Positions 7,984 through 13,948 of a stretch of 15,639 nucleotides of DNA are shown piece after piece. This stretch comes from Candidatus Nanohalobium sp. GTDB taxonomy: Archaea > Nanohalarchaeota > Nanosalinia > Nanosalinales > Nanosalinaceae. Position 1 is the first letter of the stretch. Each line of letters opens with the position of its first letter. Both the position numbers and the translations under genes were made by a program. The notes under the pieces were generated by a model. It did no database searches, was not told the origin of the DNA, and saw nothing but the letters and a program-made list of their open reading frames with translations. The stretch spans positions 1-15,639 of the forward strand of contig JBDGTY010000067.1 in NCBI GenBank assembly GCA_042216335.1. Reading direction: 5' to 3'.

Positions 7984-8014
7984 TAGTACCACTAAATTAG
8001 TCTCAGTGGTACTA
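7984..8014. promoter_or_regulatory. Probable VapBC autorepression operator (perfect inverted repeat)
   Basis: TAGTACCACT-N11-AGTGGTACTA, lying between the TTTAAG TATA-like box (~7977) and the antitoxin ATG. Confidence 0.7.
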
Positions 8015-8244
8015 TGGCTGTCGCGAGTGTAGATGAACAAGGGAGAGTATACATCCCAAAAGATATCAGAGACCAGTACGGAGACAAGTTCCGGATTATA
8101 GATACGAAGGACGGACTTGTGTTCATGCCGCTGCCGGAAGACCCTCTGGAAACCTTCCAGGAGAAGGAGAAGCTTGAAGACAAGAGTATCAAGGATCTCA
8201 AAGAAGAAGTCAGAGAGGGAGCTCAGGAGCAGGTTTCGGAATGA
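8014..8244 (+). CDS. vapB: AbrB-type antitoxin (VapB)
   Basis: VDEQGRVYIPKDIR swapped-hairpin motif. Overlaps the PIN gene by 4 bp (ATGA). Confidence 0.85.
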   Translation: MAVASVDEQGRVYIPKDIRDQYGDKFRIIDTKDGLVFMPLPEDPLETFQEKEKLEDKSIKDLKEEVREGAQEQVSE

Positions 8245-8603
8245 GGTACGCTGATACAGACTTTGTCACGGCGTTGCTCAAAGATTCTGACTGGTTGAAA
8301 CAGTCGGCAAGGGGAGTTTACCGAGAGAAAGGTGACGAGATATTTACCTCTCACGTAACTTTGAACGAGCTGCTGATTCTGTGCGAAAGAGAGGGCATGG
8401 ACCCCAAGGAGAAGCTTGCCACGCTTGAAATGATGATAGAGATCAGAGCCGATACTGACAGATATCTTGAAGCCGCCCACTACATGAAAGAACATGGGAT
8501 GCATACCTTTGACGCGCTTCAGGTAGCGTTCAGCCAAGGAGAGAAAATACTGACAACAGACCAGGAAATAAAGGAATTGACAGAGGTAGAAGACTTCAAA
8601 TAA
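8241..8603 (+). CDS. vapC: PIN-domain toxin (VapC)
   Basis: YADTDF, TLNEL, FDALQVA and ILTTD acidic PIN tetrad pattern. Confidence 0.87.
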   Translation: MRYADTDFVTALLKDSDWLKQSARGVYREKGDEIFTSHVTLNELLILCEREGMDPKEKLATLEMMIEIRADTDRYLEAAHYMKEHGMHTFDALQVAFSQGEKILTTDQEIKELTEVEDFK

Positions 8604-8623: not shown

Positions 8624-9580
8624 TTAGCCGTCAATTATTCCTTCGTCCTCGATGCTGTAGACGGCTTCTCCCTCAGGCAGGTAAGGCGAGTCCTCCAATC
8701 GGGCCACGCGCGTGTCCTTCTTGCCTTTACGTAGGTAGATTATGACTGCGCAGTTGTGTGCGACGATGTTTCCTCCGATGGCCTTTGTAGGATCGCCAAA
8801 CATCTGGTCCGGGTTGTCCATGACCTGGTTGGTGACTACGACTGCCACGTTGTGGGTGTTGGCGATACGGAGGAGTGTTGCCATGTGCTTGTTCAGCTTC
8901 TGCTGCCGGTTCGCCAGCTCTCCTCTTCCGACATACTCTGACCGGAAGTGAGCCATCAGTGAGTCGACGACTATCAGGCCGATGTCGTTGTCCTGGCAGA
9001 TCTGCTTGGCTTCCTCCGCCAGAAGCATCTGGTGGTCAGAGTTGAATGCCCGGGCAACGTGGATGTTGTCAAGCACTTCGTCTACATCCATGTCCTGTTC
9101 TTCTGCCATCTGTTCAATTCTCTCCGGGATGAATGTGTCCTCGGTGTCGATGTAGATTGCTCCTTTGTCCATACCGCCTTCTTCCTCCGATCTCTGTACG
9201 TTTACCGCCAGGTGGTGGGCGATCTGTGTCTTTCCTGCTCCAAACTCTCCGTAGAGCTCGGTGATGCATTGTGTCTCGAAGCCGCCGTCCAGAAGTTCAT
9301 TGAAGTCCTCGCTGTTTGTGCCGATCTTCTGCATGTTTTTGCGTTCCTCACGCTTCTCTGTAGCAGTCTCGAATCCGCCGACATCTGCCTTCTCCTTTGC
9401 GGATTTCACAATCGACTCTGCAGCGCTTTCGCCGATTCCATCTACTTTTCCTGAGAGTTCGCCGGCCTTCATGTTGGCTAGTTCCATGAGGTTGGCGAGT
9501 CCTTCCTCTCTCAGTCTTTCCGCGGTTTTACCTCCCACTCCTTTCAGATCTTCCAGTTCAACGTCCTGTTCTTCGCTCAT
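8624..9580 (-). CDS. radA: DNA repair and recombination protein RadA
   Basis: N-terminal HhH (LKGVGGKTA), GGFETA polymerisation motif, Walker A GEFGAGKTQ, YIDTEDTF, VVDSL, VVTNQV and DSPYLPEGEA. No intein. Confidence 0.97.
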   Translation of the reverse strand: MSEEQDVELEDLKGVGGKTAERLREEGLANLMELANMKAGELSGKVDGIGESAAESIVKSAKEKADVGGFETATEKREERKNMQKIGTNSEDFNELLDGGFETQCITELYGEFGAGKTQIAHHLAVNVQRSEEEGGMDKGAIYIDTEDTFIPERIEQMAEEQDMDVDEVLDNIHVARAFNSDHQMLLAEEAKQICQDNDIGLIVVDSLMAHFRSEYVGRGELANRQQKLNKHMATLLRIANTHNVAVVVTNQVMDNPDQMFGDPTKAIGGNIVAHNCAVIIYLRKGKKDTRVARLEDSPYLPEGEAVYSIEDEGIIDG

Positions 9581-9601: not shown

Positions 9602-10603
9602 TTATGCTTCCATGATTTCAAGCATCCTTTCAATTTCGTCTTCTGTCGTGACTTCCTCGACCTCGTTCGCCAGAATCTCTATCCGGTCGAAGTAGTCGTT
9701 GAAGCGCGTTCTGCCCTCAATGACGAGCTCCTTTCCAGCGGCCTCTTCAGCGGCCTCTTCTACTGCTTCCTCTTCCATCTCCTTCTCTACTTCCTCGTCT
9801 ACCTCCAGGACTTTCCGTGCCTGGTCGCCGAAGAACACTGTTCTGATGGTTTCGGTTCCGTCGTCGATCACTCCGGAAACCGCCAGTCTTCCTTCAGGAT
9901 CCTCTACCTCTTTGCCGTCGTCGGTGACGTAGTCTCCATCGTCGTTTTCCCTGACTGTGTCTCCTGTCTCCGGGTCTACCCTGTAGAACGGGTTGGATGT
10001 GTATACCTTCATCAGCATGCCGCGGACCCTGTAAGAGCTGTCCTCAGAGTTGGCTTCGCTGATAGGAACCTCCTGAGTCTGCATCGAGTTGCTTTCATCG
10101 ACTTCCGGGATTTCGTCTTCGTCAAGCATCTTGACCTGTACATCGTCACCAAGCCGCAGCTCTGCGTTACCCTGGTTATCTTCCACCGTATACGCTCCTG
10201 CGATCTCTATTCCATCGCCTTCGGAGACTTTCTCGGAGACCTGTGTCTGCTCATCCCAGAGGGTTACACGGATGGTTCCGGATTCGTCGCCGAGAACGAT
10301 GTTCTGGACTTTCCCGTCCTCTTCGTCATCATCCCGCTCAAAAGTATTGATATCGGATATGTTGAGGACCTTGGCCTTGAGATGTACTTTACGCATCTCG
10401 GGGACTATATTATCTATCTGGAGGTCCTTGTTCTCCTCTCCCTCGATGTTCACGCCGAACTCTTTGGCTACAAGGTGGGCGGCTCCTTCCTCGGAGACCA
10501 GGCCGGAGAACTCCTCCATTTTATCCTCTATTTCCTCTTCGACTTCGTCCTCGTCAAGGTCTGATTCCTCGACAATCTTCTCGATAACGTCCTCAACTTC
10601 CAT
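9602..10603 (-). CDS. rpa: Replication protein A / ssDNA-binding OB-fold protein (DUF2240-type N-terminus)
   Basis: FSGLVSEEGAAHLVA N-domain and OB folds with GDESGTIRVTLWD and DDGTETIRTVFF. Co-directional with and upstream of radA. Confidence 0.88.
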   Translation of the reverse strand: MEVEDVIEKIVEESDLDEDEVEEEIEDKMEEFSGLVSEEGAAHLVAKEFGVNIEGEENKDLQIDNIVPEMRKVHLKAKVLNISDINTFERDDDEEDGKVQNIVLGDESGTIRVTLWDEQTQVSEKVSEGDGIEIAGAYTVEDNQGNAELRLGDDVQVKMLDEDEIPEVDESNSMQTQEVPISEANSEDSSYRVRGMLMKVYTSNPFYRVDPETGDTVRENDDGDYVTDDGKEVEDPEGRLAVSGVIDDGTETIRTVFFGDQARKVLEVDEEVEKEMEEEAVEEAAEEAAGKELVIEGRTRFNDYFDRIEILANEVEEVTTEDEIERMLEIMEA

Positions 10604-10655: not shown

Positions 10656-11072
10656 GTGGCCTTAGACCGTATAAGAGACCTTGACCCTGAGAAAATGCTG
10701 GCAGCTATTTTCGCCGGCCTAACAGTTATCTTAACATTCCGACTGAACAGCTTCTGGTTATTCACAGGCCTCAGTTCATACTCAGCTCTGATCGGGTATG
10801 TGACAGGTTACACCGGTCGAAAAATAGACAGTAAAATCTATCGATACGTGGCTTATACTGTGCTTTTAACCCTGCTGATCCTGCCGTTCCTAGCCATAGT
10901 TCTAGAGACTCAATGCCTGGCTTATCAGCCGTACGAGGCCCGGAACATCTTTACAGGCAAAGTCAAAGAATTCGTTCACGGAGGATGCGGTCCTCTAGAC
11001 TCACATCCATGGTACTATCAAGTAACCGACTCAAGCACACTGGACTTTCAGCCAGCCAACGGAACAAGTTGA
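10656..11072 (+). CDS. Hypothetical membrane protein with a small Cys-containing C-terminal domain
   Basis: The true start is probably GTG 10656 or ATG 10695, because the 10089 extension is antisense to rpa. About 3 TM segments followed by QCLAY...HGGCG. Confidence 0.6.
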   Translation: MALDRIRDLDPEKMLAAIFAGLTVILTFRLNSFWLFTGLSSYSALIGYVTGYTGRKIDSKIYRYVAYTVLLTLLILPFLAIVLETQCLAYQPYEARNIFTGKVKEFVHGGCGPLDSHPWYYQVTDSSTLDFQPANGTS

Positions 11073-11105: not shown

Positions 11106-11303
11106 TTATCGCAGGGCGTCTCTGACGTCTTCTGCCCGGACAGTCTTCCTGTCTTTCTCCTTTGCGACGGCGATTGCTTCCTCTGATACATCACCGGCAA
11201 AGGTCTCTAGAACGTCTGCCAGTTCTTTTGCGCTGTCTTCGGATACTCTTTTGTCGCCCTGTTGCTTGATGGTCTCCTTCATCTTTGAAACTGAAAACTC
11301 CAT
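11106..11303 (-). CDS. Archaeal histone (single histone fold, HMf-like)
   Basis: Aligns without gaps to HMfB: G16, R19-V-S, and R52-K-T-V-x-x-x-D59. Confidence 0.92.
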   Translation of the reverse strand: MEFSVSKMKETIKQQGDKRVSEDSAKELADVLETFAGDVSEEAIAVAKEKDRKTVRAEDVRDALR

Positions 11304-11442: not shown

Positions 11443-11718
11443 TTGACCGACGCCGAGGACATCTTCCTCCACAAAAAACCTGCCAGGCTAATGGTGCACC
11501 TCAACAACCCGGCCAGGGACAACTACACCTCACAGATCGCACGGGAAATAGACTGCACATACAGCCACGCGGTGCGGATCACCCAGAAACTCGAGGAAAC
11601 AGGCCTGGTGAAGAGCCGGAAAGAAGGCAGGAAAAAGATACTCGAACTCACAACCCCAGGAGAACAAGTGGCCGAAGCACTCAGCGAACTACTCCACAGA
11701 TTCAGAAAACTCGAATAA
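11443..11718 (+). CDS. Winged helix-turn-helix (MarR/ArsR-like) DNA-binding protein
   Basis: YTSQIAREIDCTYSHAVRITQKLEETGLV helix-turn-helix and KEGRKKILELT wing. TTG start, divergent from the histone gene. Confidence 0.85.
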   Translation: MTDAEDIFLHKKPARLMVHLNNPARDNYTSQIAREIDCTYSHAVRITQKLEETGLVKSRKEGRKKILELTTPGEQVAEALSELLHRFRKLE

Positions 11719-11966
11719 CCCGGCCAAACACCCTCACTTTCCCAAAAAAGGACACCTCCCATCTCCTAACACTCACATAACTCCAGCACCAGCCACCCGA
11801 CTCAAAACAGGTGCGCATACCATTCCCGAAAACACCCCACCAACAGGAAGATAACACCTTATTTCCTGCCAGAAAAACACTCTACCTCCTCTACCCCAAA
11901 CACACACAGAGGTCCAGACCAGAAGAACCCTGTCCAGAAACCTAACTGAACTCACAAAACACCTCC

Positions 11967-12095
11967 AGAGTGTTCAAACCAGACGAACAATAATGTGTTG
12001 AGAACAAGCGAACATTCCTGCCTTTTACAAACCTTTTGTTAACACCGCAGAGAAAAAACAGTTCATTATGAGTGTTTGACTCAATCGAACAACCT
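11967..12095 (+). repeat. Left arm of a ~130-bp degenerate inverted repeat (partner 12852-12980)
   Basis: Aligns to the reverse complement of 12852-12980, sharing GA(G/A)TGTTC, AACAAT, AAGC.AAC.TTC, CTTTT..AAA and TGAGTGTTTG....AATCGAACA. Confidence 0.75.
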
Positions 12096-12133
12096 GTAAA
12101 ACTTGATTAACCTGCGTTCACAACCTGTTAGAC

Positions 12134-12355
12134 ATGAGAATCACAAAGATCCAGGACGACGGCGAACGCTTCATAATACACGGAGATGGCCGCCTCTACC
12201 AGAAACTGAAGGACGCCTTCGACCAGATGGGTCTCGGCATCTCAGTCACAGAGTCGGAAAAAGGCGTAGCCAACATCCTCTACACCGAGAACAACAGAGA
12301 CATCATACTCAACGTTCTCAGGGAGCGGACTGACGGCAGCATGAAACAACGATGA
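12134..12355 (+). CDS. Hypothetical 73-aa protein inside the palindrome array
   Basis: Host-like codon usage and a plausible alpha/beta pattern (MRITKIQDDGERFIIHGDG...). A TTGATTAA box lies ~30 bp upstream. The stop TGA is the first 3 bp of palindrome 4. Confidence 0.65.
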   Translation: MRITKIQDDGERFIIHGDGRLYQKLKDAFDQMGLGISVTESEKGVANILYTENNRDIILNVLRERTDGSMKQR

Positions 12356-12435
12356 GTGTTCAGACTATTTGAACACTCAGAAGCAGACAGGATACAGAAT
12401 CGGGCCGAAAATACAGAGTCCAGAAAAAGACCTAG

Positions 12436-12623
12436 CATAAAGAAGGTATATCGTCAATATTGGAGTACGTGGTTTTCACCCTGGTTTTTTGGAATCGAAT
12501 AGGGTTCGCGATCCAGATAAGGTATATCATAAAGGAGGTATAACTTCGCCTTGTGAAACAATGCGCCTGGTTGAGCCACCAGCTCACATACCTTCTTTGT
12601 TACGGCGAATTTCAGGTATATCG
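12436..12623. repeat. Five copies of a second motif, (CATAAAGR)AGGTATATC
   Basis: CATAAAGAAGGTATATC (12436), AGGTATATCA (12520), CATAAAGGAGGTATAAC (12528), inverted CATACCTTCTTTG (12587) and AGGTATATCG (12614). Confidence 0.75.
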
Positions 12624-12851
12624 ACCCAGGAAAGTGAGTGTTCGAGCTATTTGAACACTCAAGCATGTGGCGGAAATTCAAGATTCCGGAGAGGCAGGAG
12701 AAAAGTGAGAATTTCCCAATACTCATTGAACCAAGCAGGAAGGTCCTGGTCTATAGAGTCCAGAGAACCAGGATTTCTTATTCTCCAGAATAATACACCT
12801 GTCCAGTCTGATTAACCTGCCCTATATAGCAAGTTTAGAGGCTAAAACGCG

Positions 12852-12980
12852 AGAGTGTTCGATTTATCCAAACACTCAAATAGCATTAAGTGATTATAGG
12901 GTAACACCAAAGCATTTTAAAAAGATATGAACGTTAGCTTTAAATGAACAACAAGATTGTTGACATAGATCGAACATTCA
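12852..12980 (-). repeat. Right arm of the ~130-bp degenerate inverted repeat
   Basis: Mirror of 11967-12095, and AT-rich between 12879 and 12960. Confidence 0.75.
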
Positions 12981-13107
12981 AAGGATGTGAGGATTTCGAC
13001 CGTTTTCAGCGAAAGAGGGGAAGTGCAGGAGCTGTCGAATGATAGTAAGGCATAGCAGAAGAGAAGATAAAGAAAGGGAGAAGAGGCTACGGATGAAATG
13101 TGGGGTT

Positions 13108-13476
13108 TCAGGCCAGGATCTCGACCTCGTAGCCCTCCGGATCCTTGACGAAACCGTAGTCGCCGGAGCATTCCTTCGGAGGCCGATAATCCTCTCCGCC
13201 GGCCTCCACGGCTCTCTCGTACGCTTCCTGAAGTGACTGATCCTCGTCCGTCTTTATGGCGATGTGGCCGAAGCCCTCACCCTTCTCGTACCTGTCGTCC
13301 TCACCATGGTTGTATGTAAGTTCTATCTTCGCGTCCTGGCCAGGAATCTGGAGGAAGTATAGCGTGAAGGTGTCGTTCTCGGATTTCCTGACAAGTTCGA
13401 ATCCGAACGCCTCACTGTAGAAGTCGATGACTTTCTCCGGGTCGGAAACGCGCAGCATCGTGTGATCTAGCTCCAT
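13108..13476 (-). CDS. gloA: Glyoxalase I / VOC family (lactoylglutathione lyase)
   Basis: LDHTMLRVSD, IELTYNHG, GFGHIAI and FVKDPEGYEVEI. Confidence 0.9.
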   Translation of the reverse strand: MELDHTMLRVSDPEKVIDFYSEAFGFELVRKSENDTFTLYFLQIPGQDAKIELTYNHGEDDRYEKGEGFGHIAIKTDEDQSLQEAYERAVEAGGEDYRPPKECSGDYGFVKDPEGYEVEILA

Positions 13477-13510: not shown

Positions 13511-13897
13511 TCAGGTCTGTGGCAGGATGTTGACTGACTCAGTGTGCTTGCTGCCCTCCAGCTCGTTGTAGAAGTCGATGACCTTGTCGGCGTTCCCCTG
13601 CGTGTGGAATACCTCGAGGCAGTTATCGCCGTCCAGCTTGGAGTGGAGCTGTGTCGTGACGATATCGTCGAAGTCGTGTGAGATATGGGCGATCCTCTGC
13701 TCCTTCTTGTGAGGATGCCTGACCACGATCAAGGCGTTAAGTTCGCCCTCCAGACTCTGGTTGTCCTCCACTTCCTGGTGCAGGTTCTCCACGGCAGTCC
13801 TGATCAACTCGCTTCTTCCGTTAAAGCTGGCCTCCTCCTGTATCTCATCGATTTTATCCAGCGTTTCTTCATCCAGGGACAGACTTATTATTTCCAT
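13511..13897 (-). CDS. NikR-like ribbon-helix-helix metal-responsive regulator
   Basis: IISLSL...GRSELIR RHH domain plus an ACT-like domain with HDF...QLHSKL...CLEVF. Start at 13897 or 13903. Confidence 0.85.
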   Translation of the reverse strand: MEIISLSLDEETLDKIDEIQEEASFNGRSELIRTAVENLHQEVEDNQSLEGELNALIVVRHPHKKEQRIAHISHDFDDIVTTQLHSKLDGDNCLEVFHTQGNADKVIDFYNELEGSKHTESVNILPQT

Positions 13898-13948
13898 AAC
13901 CACAGATTAATAGGAAAGTTGAAAAACTTAATAACACACATGTTTGTC

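Follow-up and report, generated by a model that had tools for sequence, protein, structure and literature searches.

A single array of regularly spaced palindromes, conserved across the Nanohaloarchaeota, beside a small winged-helix gene

In the genome of the archaeon Candidatus Nanohalobium sp., an almost gene-free stretch of ~1.4 kb, located between a gene for a 91-residue winged helix-turn-helix protein (wHTH91) and a glyoxalase gene, carries eight palindromic sites (11967-12980), and these sites form a real, statistically secure cis-element array which is found phylum-wide and has a fixed architecture. The window analysed here is the entire 15,639-bp contig on which the array lies (JBDGTY010000067.1, C64 in our numbering), belonging to a 1.02-Mb assembly (GCA_042216335.1; 1,019,222 positions in 74 contigs, 96% complete). 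DPANN genomes, with sizes of about 1 Mb, contain very little non-coding DNA, and to our knowledge almost nothing is known of the cis-acting chromosome elements of these organisms. Our working interpretation, held tentatively, is that the palindromes constitute an operator array controlling two small convergent transcription units, with the adjacent wHTH protein as the candidate binder. An earlier inspection of the letters alone (the sequence-only reading) had recognised the element itself, while overlooking a conserved small gene inside it (orf73), the adjoining wHTH gene and a second motif at its centre. Throughout, related nanohaloarchaeal genomes are designated by G-numbers (G000 being the genome of the window and G003 a complete genome from the same genus) and families by f-numbers (f1, f3 and f4).

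The eight palindromes start exactly where the sequence-only reading had placed them, and the gaps of 25, 77, 284, 282, 217, 76 and 26 follow from these starts. Mismatches were scored against TGAGTGTTC-N9-GAACACTCA, a pattern with 18 specified positions. The two central sites have the perfect arms that had been attributed to them (0/18 mismatches each): the first (12353-12379) overlaps the orf73 stop codon and forms the left boundary of a central core, and the second (12635-12661) forms the right boundary. To the left, an outer site (11967-11993, 3/18 mismatches) and an inner site (12069-12095, 4/18, ending 39 nt upstream of the orf73 ATG) make up a pair separated by 102 bp, and a weak palindrome (11992-12018, 6/18) abuts the outer one. 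To the right, the inner (12852-12878, 2/18) and outer (12954-12980, 4/18) sites make up a second 102-bp pair, with a weak palindrome (12928-12954, 6/18) that mirrors the one at 11992, so that the outer triplets are indeed mirror images, each weak site abutting a strong one in mirrored placement.

This eight-site cluster is confirmed to be beyond chance, and it is the only such cluster in the genome. With up to 3 mismatches, the window contains 4 matches, versus 0 in 200 dinucleotide shuffles, and with the shorter pattern GTGTTC-N9-GAACAC (up to 2 mismatches) all 6 sites lie within 11970-12875. Genome-wide, 6 of the 13 sites with up to 4 mismatches and 8 of the 209 with up to 6 mismatches fall in this 1.1 kb; two other hits in the genome (C35:14250 and C60:1490, with 2 mismatches to a 16-position pattern) are both inside long open reading frames (ORFs). 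Taken singly, the 6-mismatch sites at 11992 and 12928 are at chance level (there are 168 such sites in the genome); we nevertheless consider them real, because each abuts a strong site, their placement is mirrored and the doublet of strong and weak sites recurs in six relatives (G003, G002, G019, G016, G069 and G021).

The consensus derived from 166 sites (38 genomes) is (A)(T)GAGTGTTC(R)-N7-(Y)GAACACTC(A)(T), with 90-100% conservation of TGTT and AACA around a variable, A/T-rich spacer. When the two arms are compared position by position (1,328 pair cells), one-sided deviations number 308, of which 238 break the pairing, and two-sided deviations number only 13, of which 5 are complementary. 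The half-sites therefore deviate without compensation, which means that each is held to its own sequence and not to its partner, the signature of a dimeric protein acting on duplex DNA. It is thus as double-stranded DNA, and not as RNA or DNA hairpins, that the palindromes are read, and, judging from this substitution pattern, the most likely binder of each is a dimeric protein with sequence specificity.

The array is a property of the phylum. Allowing up to 2 mismatches, GAGTGTTC-N9-GAACACTC is present in 36 of the 41 related genomes, compared with one match in one genome for the reversed-pattern control; allowing up to 1 mismatch, it is present in 43 of the 70 genomes of the phylum and the control gives 0. 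The sequence-only reading had asked whether the motif is clustered or dispersed, and the first alternative holds: the hits of each genome (2-7 sites) are gathered in one cluster spanning 0.3-2.7 kb. The wHTH91 gene is found 50-260 bp from a site in 14 of 20 loci, and in a second collection a wHTH gene lies 5' of the array in all 13 nanohaloarchaeal loci. The gene order (RadA, RPA and histone, then the divergent wHTH gene, then the array) is kept in loci of five families. Two genomes of good quality are without the motif. In G018, the wHTH gene and orf73 are directly followed by other genes, with neither palindromes nor core, and in G014 no site was found across the genome or in the 866 bp left before the end of the contig. 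G018 (locus L053, G018:C21:17000-22556) is also the smallest of the good genomes (0.7 Mb, 96% complete), and it has kept the TATA-like box of orf73. Palindrome-like hits elsewhere were considered as a possible regulon and rejected, given their positions in coding sequences (those of a zinc-ribbon protein and of an ORF resembling RNA methyltransferases). A search of one library of open-access papers gave no description of this element, with the letters of the motif matching primers only.

The distances between adjacent sites (n = 128) fall into classes, with 14 at 25-38 bp, 8 at 76-88 bp, 20 at 100-113 bp, 24 at 250-288 bp and ~15 at 339-397 bp, and these fixed classes are kept in the relatives, one of the points by which the sequence-only reading had proposed to be judged. 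The unit that recurs at the two ends is an outer module, in which a strong site with a weak one abutting it is followed by a T/A box and then by another strong site, at 102 bp from the initial one. The usual order in family f1 is wHTH gene, left module, orf73, site-core-site, mirrored module and then the glyoxalase or NikR gene; this mirror order is found in 14 of the 17 orientable f1 genomes, and the window matches it exactly. Together with the non-compensating conserved half-sites, the single array per genome and the phylum-wide conservation, the fixed spacing supports the earlier idea of a purpose-built nucleoprotein platform.

The mirror symmetry of the ends had also suggested the multi-site ends of a non-autonomous mobile or invertible element, and some observations in the relatives would agree with it: segments bounded by palindromes are inverted in 3 of the 17 genomes (the entire segment in G003; the core relative to its flanks in G005 and G021), in G045 a palindrome-core-palindrome unit lies amid unrelated genes, and unrelated ORFs are inserted within the array in G001, G002, G020 and G031. 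Ordinary recombination between inverted repeats would, however, yield such inversions, and the element is present in a single copy per genome, at a position kept in five families, with no transposase or recombinase nearby (nor any Pfam domain of this kind in the inserted ORFs) and no arrays in viral contigs, where there are 15 single exact hits. We thus regard mobile or invertible ends as very improbable and do not retain this part of the sequence-only reading. As a miniature inverted-repeat transposable element or an insertion sequence the array was rejected on the same grounds, namely one locus per genome and no transposase domain in flanking or inserted ORFs; a CRISPR was rejected as well, given spacings of 25-284 bp, palindromic repeats and a protein-coding gene inside the array. 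In three genomes the inserted ORFs, 200-346 residues long, are homologous to one another (L033:7074-7679, L034:6740-7780 and L047:4432-5445) and give only weak hints of a helix-turn-helix.

Between the two perfect palindromes lies the non-coding core (12425-12640; ~190 bp), which aligns almost without gaps in 24 genomes from at least 14 genera and contains a second motif, M2 (AAAGRAGGTAT), in three copies at 12439 (+), 12531 (+) and 12587 (-), with a T-run after the third. Copies 2 and 3 are inverted relative to each other and separated by 54-56 bp in all 24 genomes, and copy 1, where forward, is located 92 bp upstream of copy 2 (four genomes have it in flipped orientation, and in two it is a palindromic hybrid). 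M2 is confined to this locus genome-wide, and in G003 the triad is perfect. In families f3 and f4, the palindromes enclose a core that differs from this one but is related to it, with repeats of GTCAACAG/CTGTTGAC, canonical TATA boxes, a run of G or of C and a common CGCCAGA block. No conserved ORF and no 3-base periodicity were found in the core.

These properties have to be weighed against a reading at the RNA level, in which transcripts of the palindromes would form hairpins, or a structured small RNA would be encoded by the core. The fixed length and non-coding nature of the core, the TATA-like boxes upstream of it, the 13-bp inverted repeat formed by copies 2 and 3 and followed on the + strand by the T-run (with an A-run before copy 1), and one compensated pair (in G017) are all features that such an RNA could have. 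Yet Rfam 15 gives 0 matches in the whole window at E values up to 1 (known RNA families are rejected for this reason), folding of the core on both strands gives weak z-scores (-0.56 and -0.13), covariation is not above that of shuffles (139/500 and 56/500 of which reach the observed score), and RNAalifold proposes for the core an invariant stem only, with a covariation term of -0.05. Moreover, position 5 of M2 varies between A and G independently across the three copies, and the C variants of copy 3 are compensated in 1 case out of 4; with independent variation and so little compensation, a DNA site fits better than an RNA stem. The non-compensating palindrome arms and the inversion of the core relative to its flanks in G005 and G021 also speak against an RNA element, which we consider improbable. 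A search for tRNAs in the window returned none, and RNase P RNA and signal recognition particle (SRP) RNA were rejected as identities of the core, since both are located elsewhere in the genome (G000:C48:1305-1644, 34 bits, and C38:13072-13347, 85 bits, respectively). The latter two are full-length but divergent matches, below the Rfam gathering thresholds.

The element is not only a set of sites, but also contains a gene. The small ORF orf73 (12134-12355, + strand) is a real gene, coding for a conserved protein of 68-78 residues whose eight aligned orthologues are 48-83% identical to it and whose AlphaFold2 (AF2) model (pLDDT 85.6) has a beta-beta-alpha-beta-beta-alpha fold; no Pfam or NCBIfam family was found for it, nor any PDB fold match below E 0.05. 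Upstream of its ATG there is a TATA-like box (TTGATTAA, 12103-12110, + strand) at -31 to -24, the same box being kept in G018. This location agrees with the start codons of the genome as a whole, for which an A/T peak at -32 to -25 (with TTTTAA/TTTAAA enriched 12-16-fold there) indicates that most mRNAs are leaderless, their TATA box lying near -28. A dyad site is found at this promoter as well, given that a palindrome ends 36-42 nt upstream of the orf73 ATG in 10 of 12 genomes. More generally, TATA-like hexamers peak 28-43 bp from the palindrome edges (332 flanks), with 0.08-0.16 per 4-bp bin versus 0.02-0.05 elsewhere, and in f4 a canonical GTTTATAAGG box lies ~13 bp beyond a palindrome. The orf73 promoter is contained in the first copy (12092-12115) of a 24-nt box, ACCTGT..TGATTAACCTGC, and a second copy (family D4, 79% identity) occurs at 12797-12820 (+ strand).

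A similar geometry is seen inside the 102-bp pairs. Among pairs spaced 95-115 bp, 16 of 20 enclose an A/T run of at least 6, typically TTTTAAAA, located just past the weak site. The sequence-only reading had noticed that the two arms of the array share a CTTTT..AAA tract; the shared element is a TATA-like, T/A-rich box that separates the paired sites, reading ATTTTAAAAA on the right (12914-12923) and degenerate on the left (CTTTTACAAACCTTTTGTTAAC, 12022-12046, + strand), where the relatives have TTTTAAAA. Since both outer boxes point inward, the layout resembles two convergent promoters bracketed by palindromes. Paired convergent promoters were one of the candidates put forward earlier and are now the best supported of them, given the inward boxes in both pairs, which are putative promoter elements, and the palindrome-orf73 distance.

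On this basis, the operator interpretation would work as follows. A dimeric protein, for which wHTH91 is the candidate, would occupy the sites flanking each promoter, with the two outer modules facing each other across orf73 and the palindrome-core-palindrome unit. Given that 102 bp corresponds to ~10 helical turns, the paired sites are on the same face of the DNA, and looping or cooperative binding would be possible. The bound protein could then gate two convergent units: the orf73 mRNA from the left and, from the right, a non-coding transcript or the core.

The wHTH91 gene (11443-11718, + strand) is the best candidate for the binder, a choice made by position only, as the sole constant neighbour of the array. 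The protein matches Pfam HTH_27 above the cut-off (27.3 bits), and its family has a single copy in the genome of the window. A profile search of the PDB finds AF_1382 (E 4.7e-13) and, at full length, the AspA chains 5k1y, 5k5o and 4rs8 (E 5.5e-4 to 7.4e-4). The AF2 model (pLDDT 89) has a MarR/AF1382/AspA-like fold, with AspA at rank 9 of the fold matches (TM 0.76/0.81) and MarR/ArsR-type chains at TM 0.73-0.81. The recognition helix (D-x-TYSH) and the wing (GRKK) are invariant in 16 wHTH sequences. A homodimer is predicted with a score of 0.60 (best control 0.01; runs agree in at least 94% of contacts, pLDDT at least 82). Among proteins of solved structure, 20 of 30 homo-pairs attain this mark, as does 1 of 23 single chains, and for wHTH91 the pass may reflect memory of solved MarR-type dimers. 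In fold and in having dyad sites beside a promoter, the system resembles the operators of MarR/ArsR regulators (MepR, SlyA, CzrA/SmtB). Such regulators usually bind their own or a divergent promoter, whereas here up to eight sites are present, on the 3' side of the gene and with a centre-to-centre spacing of 15-17 bp.

Several observations weigh against the operator interpretation and, in particular, against wHTH91 as its protein. Proteins of this wHTH family that carry the D-x-TYSH motif also occur among the Woese-, Pace-, Nano- and Aenigmarchaeota (at least 599 matching stretches), and 67 such DPANN loci (361 kb) give 9 hits with up to 2 mismatches, versus 4 for the control, and 0 with up to 1 mismatch; five whole genomes of other DPANN phyla contain 0-2 palindrome hits, which is not above control, and a de novo search for shared palindromes near the wHTH homologues of other DPANN phyla returned A/T low-complexity sequence only. 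The link between the protein and the palindromes is weak for this reason, that the family occurs in DPANN phyla without palindromes, and it may be a general DPANN DNA-binding protein; in these other phyla the gene sits beside TFS. Within the Nanohaloarchaeota, G018 has intact wHTH and orf73 genes but zero palindromes, the array of G003 adjoins a decayed wHTH copy, and the unit of G045 stands amid unrelated genes. The sites are 3' of the wHTH gene and not in its promoter, and the invariant half-site cores are 15 bp apart, that is, ~1.5 helical turns, a separation which is unusual for a simple MarR-type dimer. Finally, the central M2 triad, with its 92/56-bp spacing, is left unaccounted for by an operator model.

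Some details of these wHTH loci can be added. In two annotated DPANN loci (L161 and L206), the wHTH gene is convergent with that of transcription factor S. The decayed copy of G003 (L032:7356-7562, equal to G003:C1:18355-18561) has no ATG and a changed recognition helix and is C/A-rich; the same genome has a wHTH paralogue 243 kb away (with a TYAH helix and no palindromes nearby), and its array has no perfect site. Sequencing runs containing this G003 locus were looked for, which yielded a single DNA run, with a share of 0.08, and none of RNA. As an alternative binder, NikR was rejected by co-occurrence, being found in 33 of 70 genomes with the query used; the same query detected no NikR in a number of array carriers, namely the 10 f3 genomes, G007, G019 and G051, and a NikR operator is rejected for the same reason.

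The distance of the array from orc1, a local flip of the GC skew, the inverted segments and the displaced unit of G045, taken with the M2 triad, leave room for a reading other than a gene switch, namely a locus for chromosome maintenance, either an origin-proximal centromere-like site or an Orc-independent secondary origin, where a small AspA/AF1382-like wHTH protein would assemble a complex of fixed geometry on the palindromes and the M2 triad. As a whole we regard this as possible but doubtful, and its two forms differ in the evidence that bears on them.

In the first form, the array would be a centromere-like or chromosome-organising site, at which the wHTH protein would nucleate a complex for segregation or SMC loading, in parallel with parS/ParB and with the pNOB8 AspA centromere. 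There is one array per chromosome, made of multiple regularly spaced palindromes, and in 9 genomes of two families (those where both share a contig) it lies 17-38 kb from the main orc1. The sites are 3' of the protein gene, as they are in type Ia partition loci. The match of wHTH91 to AspA is at full length (E 5.5e-4) and extends to the fold (rank 9), and in pNOB8 AspA-ParB-ParA too a wHTH dimer of ~90 residues (the dimer being a prediction in our case) has a palindromic DNA target. According to PMC13722703, the site of AspA is one 23-bp palindrome upstream of its operon, and the bound protein spreads along the DNA; the present array has instead 6-8 palindromes, each 25-27 bp long and located 3' of the gene. 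The differences go further, for no ParB or ParA genes lie beside wHTH91 and no Walker-type partition ATPase adjoins the array, the only PF13614 hits being three ParA/MinD-like genes on other contigs (C25:15351, C52:26527 and C52:27336). The likeness to AspA is also not above the likeness to MarR, CzrA or MepR; the proximity to orc1 is inherited synteny and not independent evidence; the array is absent in G018 and was not found in G014; and the wHTH family is present in DPANN phyla without the motif. A comparison with Sulfolobus SegAB can also be made: in that system too, palindromic chromosomal sites are bound by a small site-specific protein, SegB, next to its own gene (PMC8682754; 10.1101/2025.04.15.649018). 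SegB, however, has a ribbon-helix-helix fold and works with SegA, a partner of ParA type, and there is no such pair here. We consider a centromere-like role unlikely.

The second form descends from the bidirectional origin proposed in the sequence-only reading, of which only a part can be kept. A canonical origin is excluded: the strict origin recognition box (ORB; TTCCA-N-GAAA plus G-string) occurs twice per genome in G000 and G003, in each case immediately 5' of orc1 (in G000, on a different contig from the array), and not in the window. The orc1/cdc6 genes themselves (C18:2492-3577 and C53:22365-23318) are not beside the array. What is retained as a rival is a secondary, Orc1-independent origin, in which an initiator would recognise the palindromes and the inner M2 or GTCAACAG repeats, these surrounding T/A boxes that would melt easily. 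The locus is a unique non-coding region of 0.3-2.7 kb amid RPA, RadA and histone genes, with direct and inverted repeats at fixed spacing and no RNA covariation (three M2 copies in f1; three to four copies of GTCAACAG plus a G-string in f3/f4). GC content drops to 0.355 at 12800-12999 (0.355-0.395 over 12800-13100, versus 0.49 for the genome), with T4A4 boxes inside the pairs. The GC skew flips locally, with the sign expected at an origin, from -0.58 in the C/A-rich, G-poor spacer between the wHTH91 stop and the first palindrome (11719-11966) to +0.28/+0.39 on the right (+0.39 at 12900-13099), where a G/A-rich spacer reaches the 3' end of the glyoxalase gene (12981-13107). The flip recurs in the genus, and among relatives the left flank is negative in 11 of 16 and the right flank positive in 11 of 16. 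A non-essential origin could, in addition, tolerate loss in one lineage.

Against these points, a canonical origin exists elsewhere (the pair of ORB and G-string elements upstream of orc1 in G000 and G003), no AAA+ initiator gene adjoins the array, and the core itself is not A/T-rich (GC 0.43-0.47). In G003, which has a single orc1/cdc6 and yet a perfect M2 triad, GC and AT skew were computed for the whole genome and the GC amplitude is not above that of block permutations (p = 0.34); skew is thus uninformative on origins here and provides no replication signal as an anchor. Compared with archaeal oriC (ORB/mini-ORB), the array shares the organisation into a single non-coding locus, near replication genes and with inverted repeats around a central segment, but its palindrome does not fit the ORB pattern, no initiator gene adjoins it and the ORBs of the genome are on C18. 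A secondary origin therefore seems to us distinctly unlikely.

Three further observations concern the origins and the skew. The canonical origin of G000 (C18:1800-2440; L025) has ~800 bp of non-coding DNA upstream of orc1/cdc6, with inverted ORB/G-string elements, among them those at ~1845, 2170-2195 and 2301. Upstream of the second orc1/cdc6 (C53; L026:1215-1369) there are two GCATTC-N2-3-GAATGC palindromes, 130 bp apart, which may be an operator of that gene itself or an element of its origin. The sign pattern of the flanks (negative on the left, positive on the right) is also seen in G007, besides the genus.

Whichever reading is preferred, the analysis defines, base by base, a phylum-wide non-coding locus with a strict grammar, 17-38 kb from the origin and beside histone, RPA and RadA, and it supplies a 25-bp probe and a candidate protein for work in cultured nanohaloarchaeal co-cultures. 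If the locus is an operator array, as we tentatively favour, it would be among the most elaborate known in archaea and would point to an essential small gene or transcript. Were it instead a locus for chromosome maintenance, it would be the first such chromosomal cis-element defined in a DPANN archaeon and, as a centromere-like site or a second origin, would bear on the organisation and segregation of chromosomes in archaea outside the Sulfolobales.

The remaining genes around the array in the window are, on the wHTH91 side, those of RadA (8624-9580), RPA (9602-10603) and a histone (11106-11303), all on the - strand and assigned by Pfam, and, on the opposite side, those of the glyoxalase (13108-13476, - strand), NikR (13511-13903, - strand) and a ZIP transporter (from 13970, + strand). 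Between RPA and the histone there is a membrane ORF of 125 residues (10695-11072, + strand), restricted to the genome of the window, with no tblastn match in the related loci. Between RadA and a LigT gene, within 8014-8603, a small ORF is followed by a PIN-domain-like ORF (8241-8603), the two having the appearance of a putative VapBC-type pair; homologues of the PIN-like ORF occupy the equivalent position in G001 and G002.

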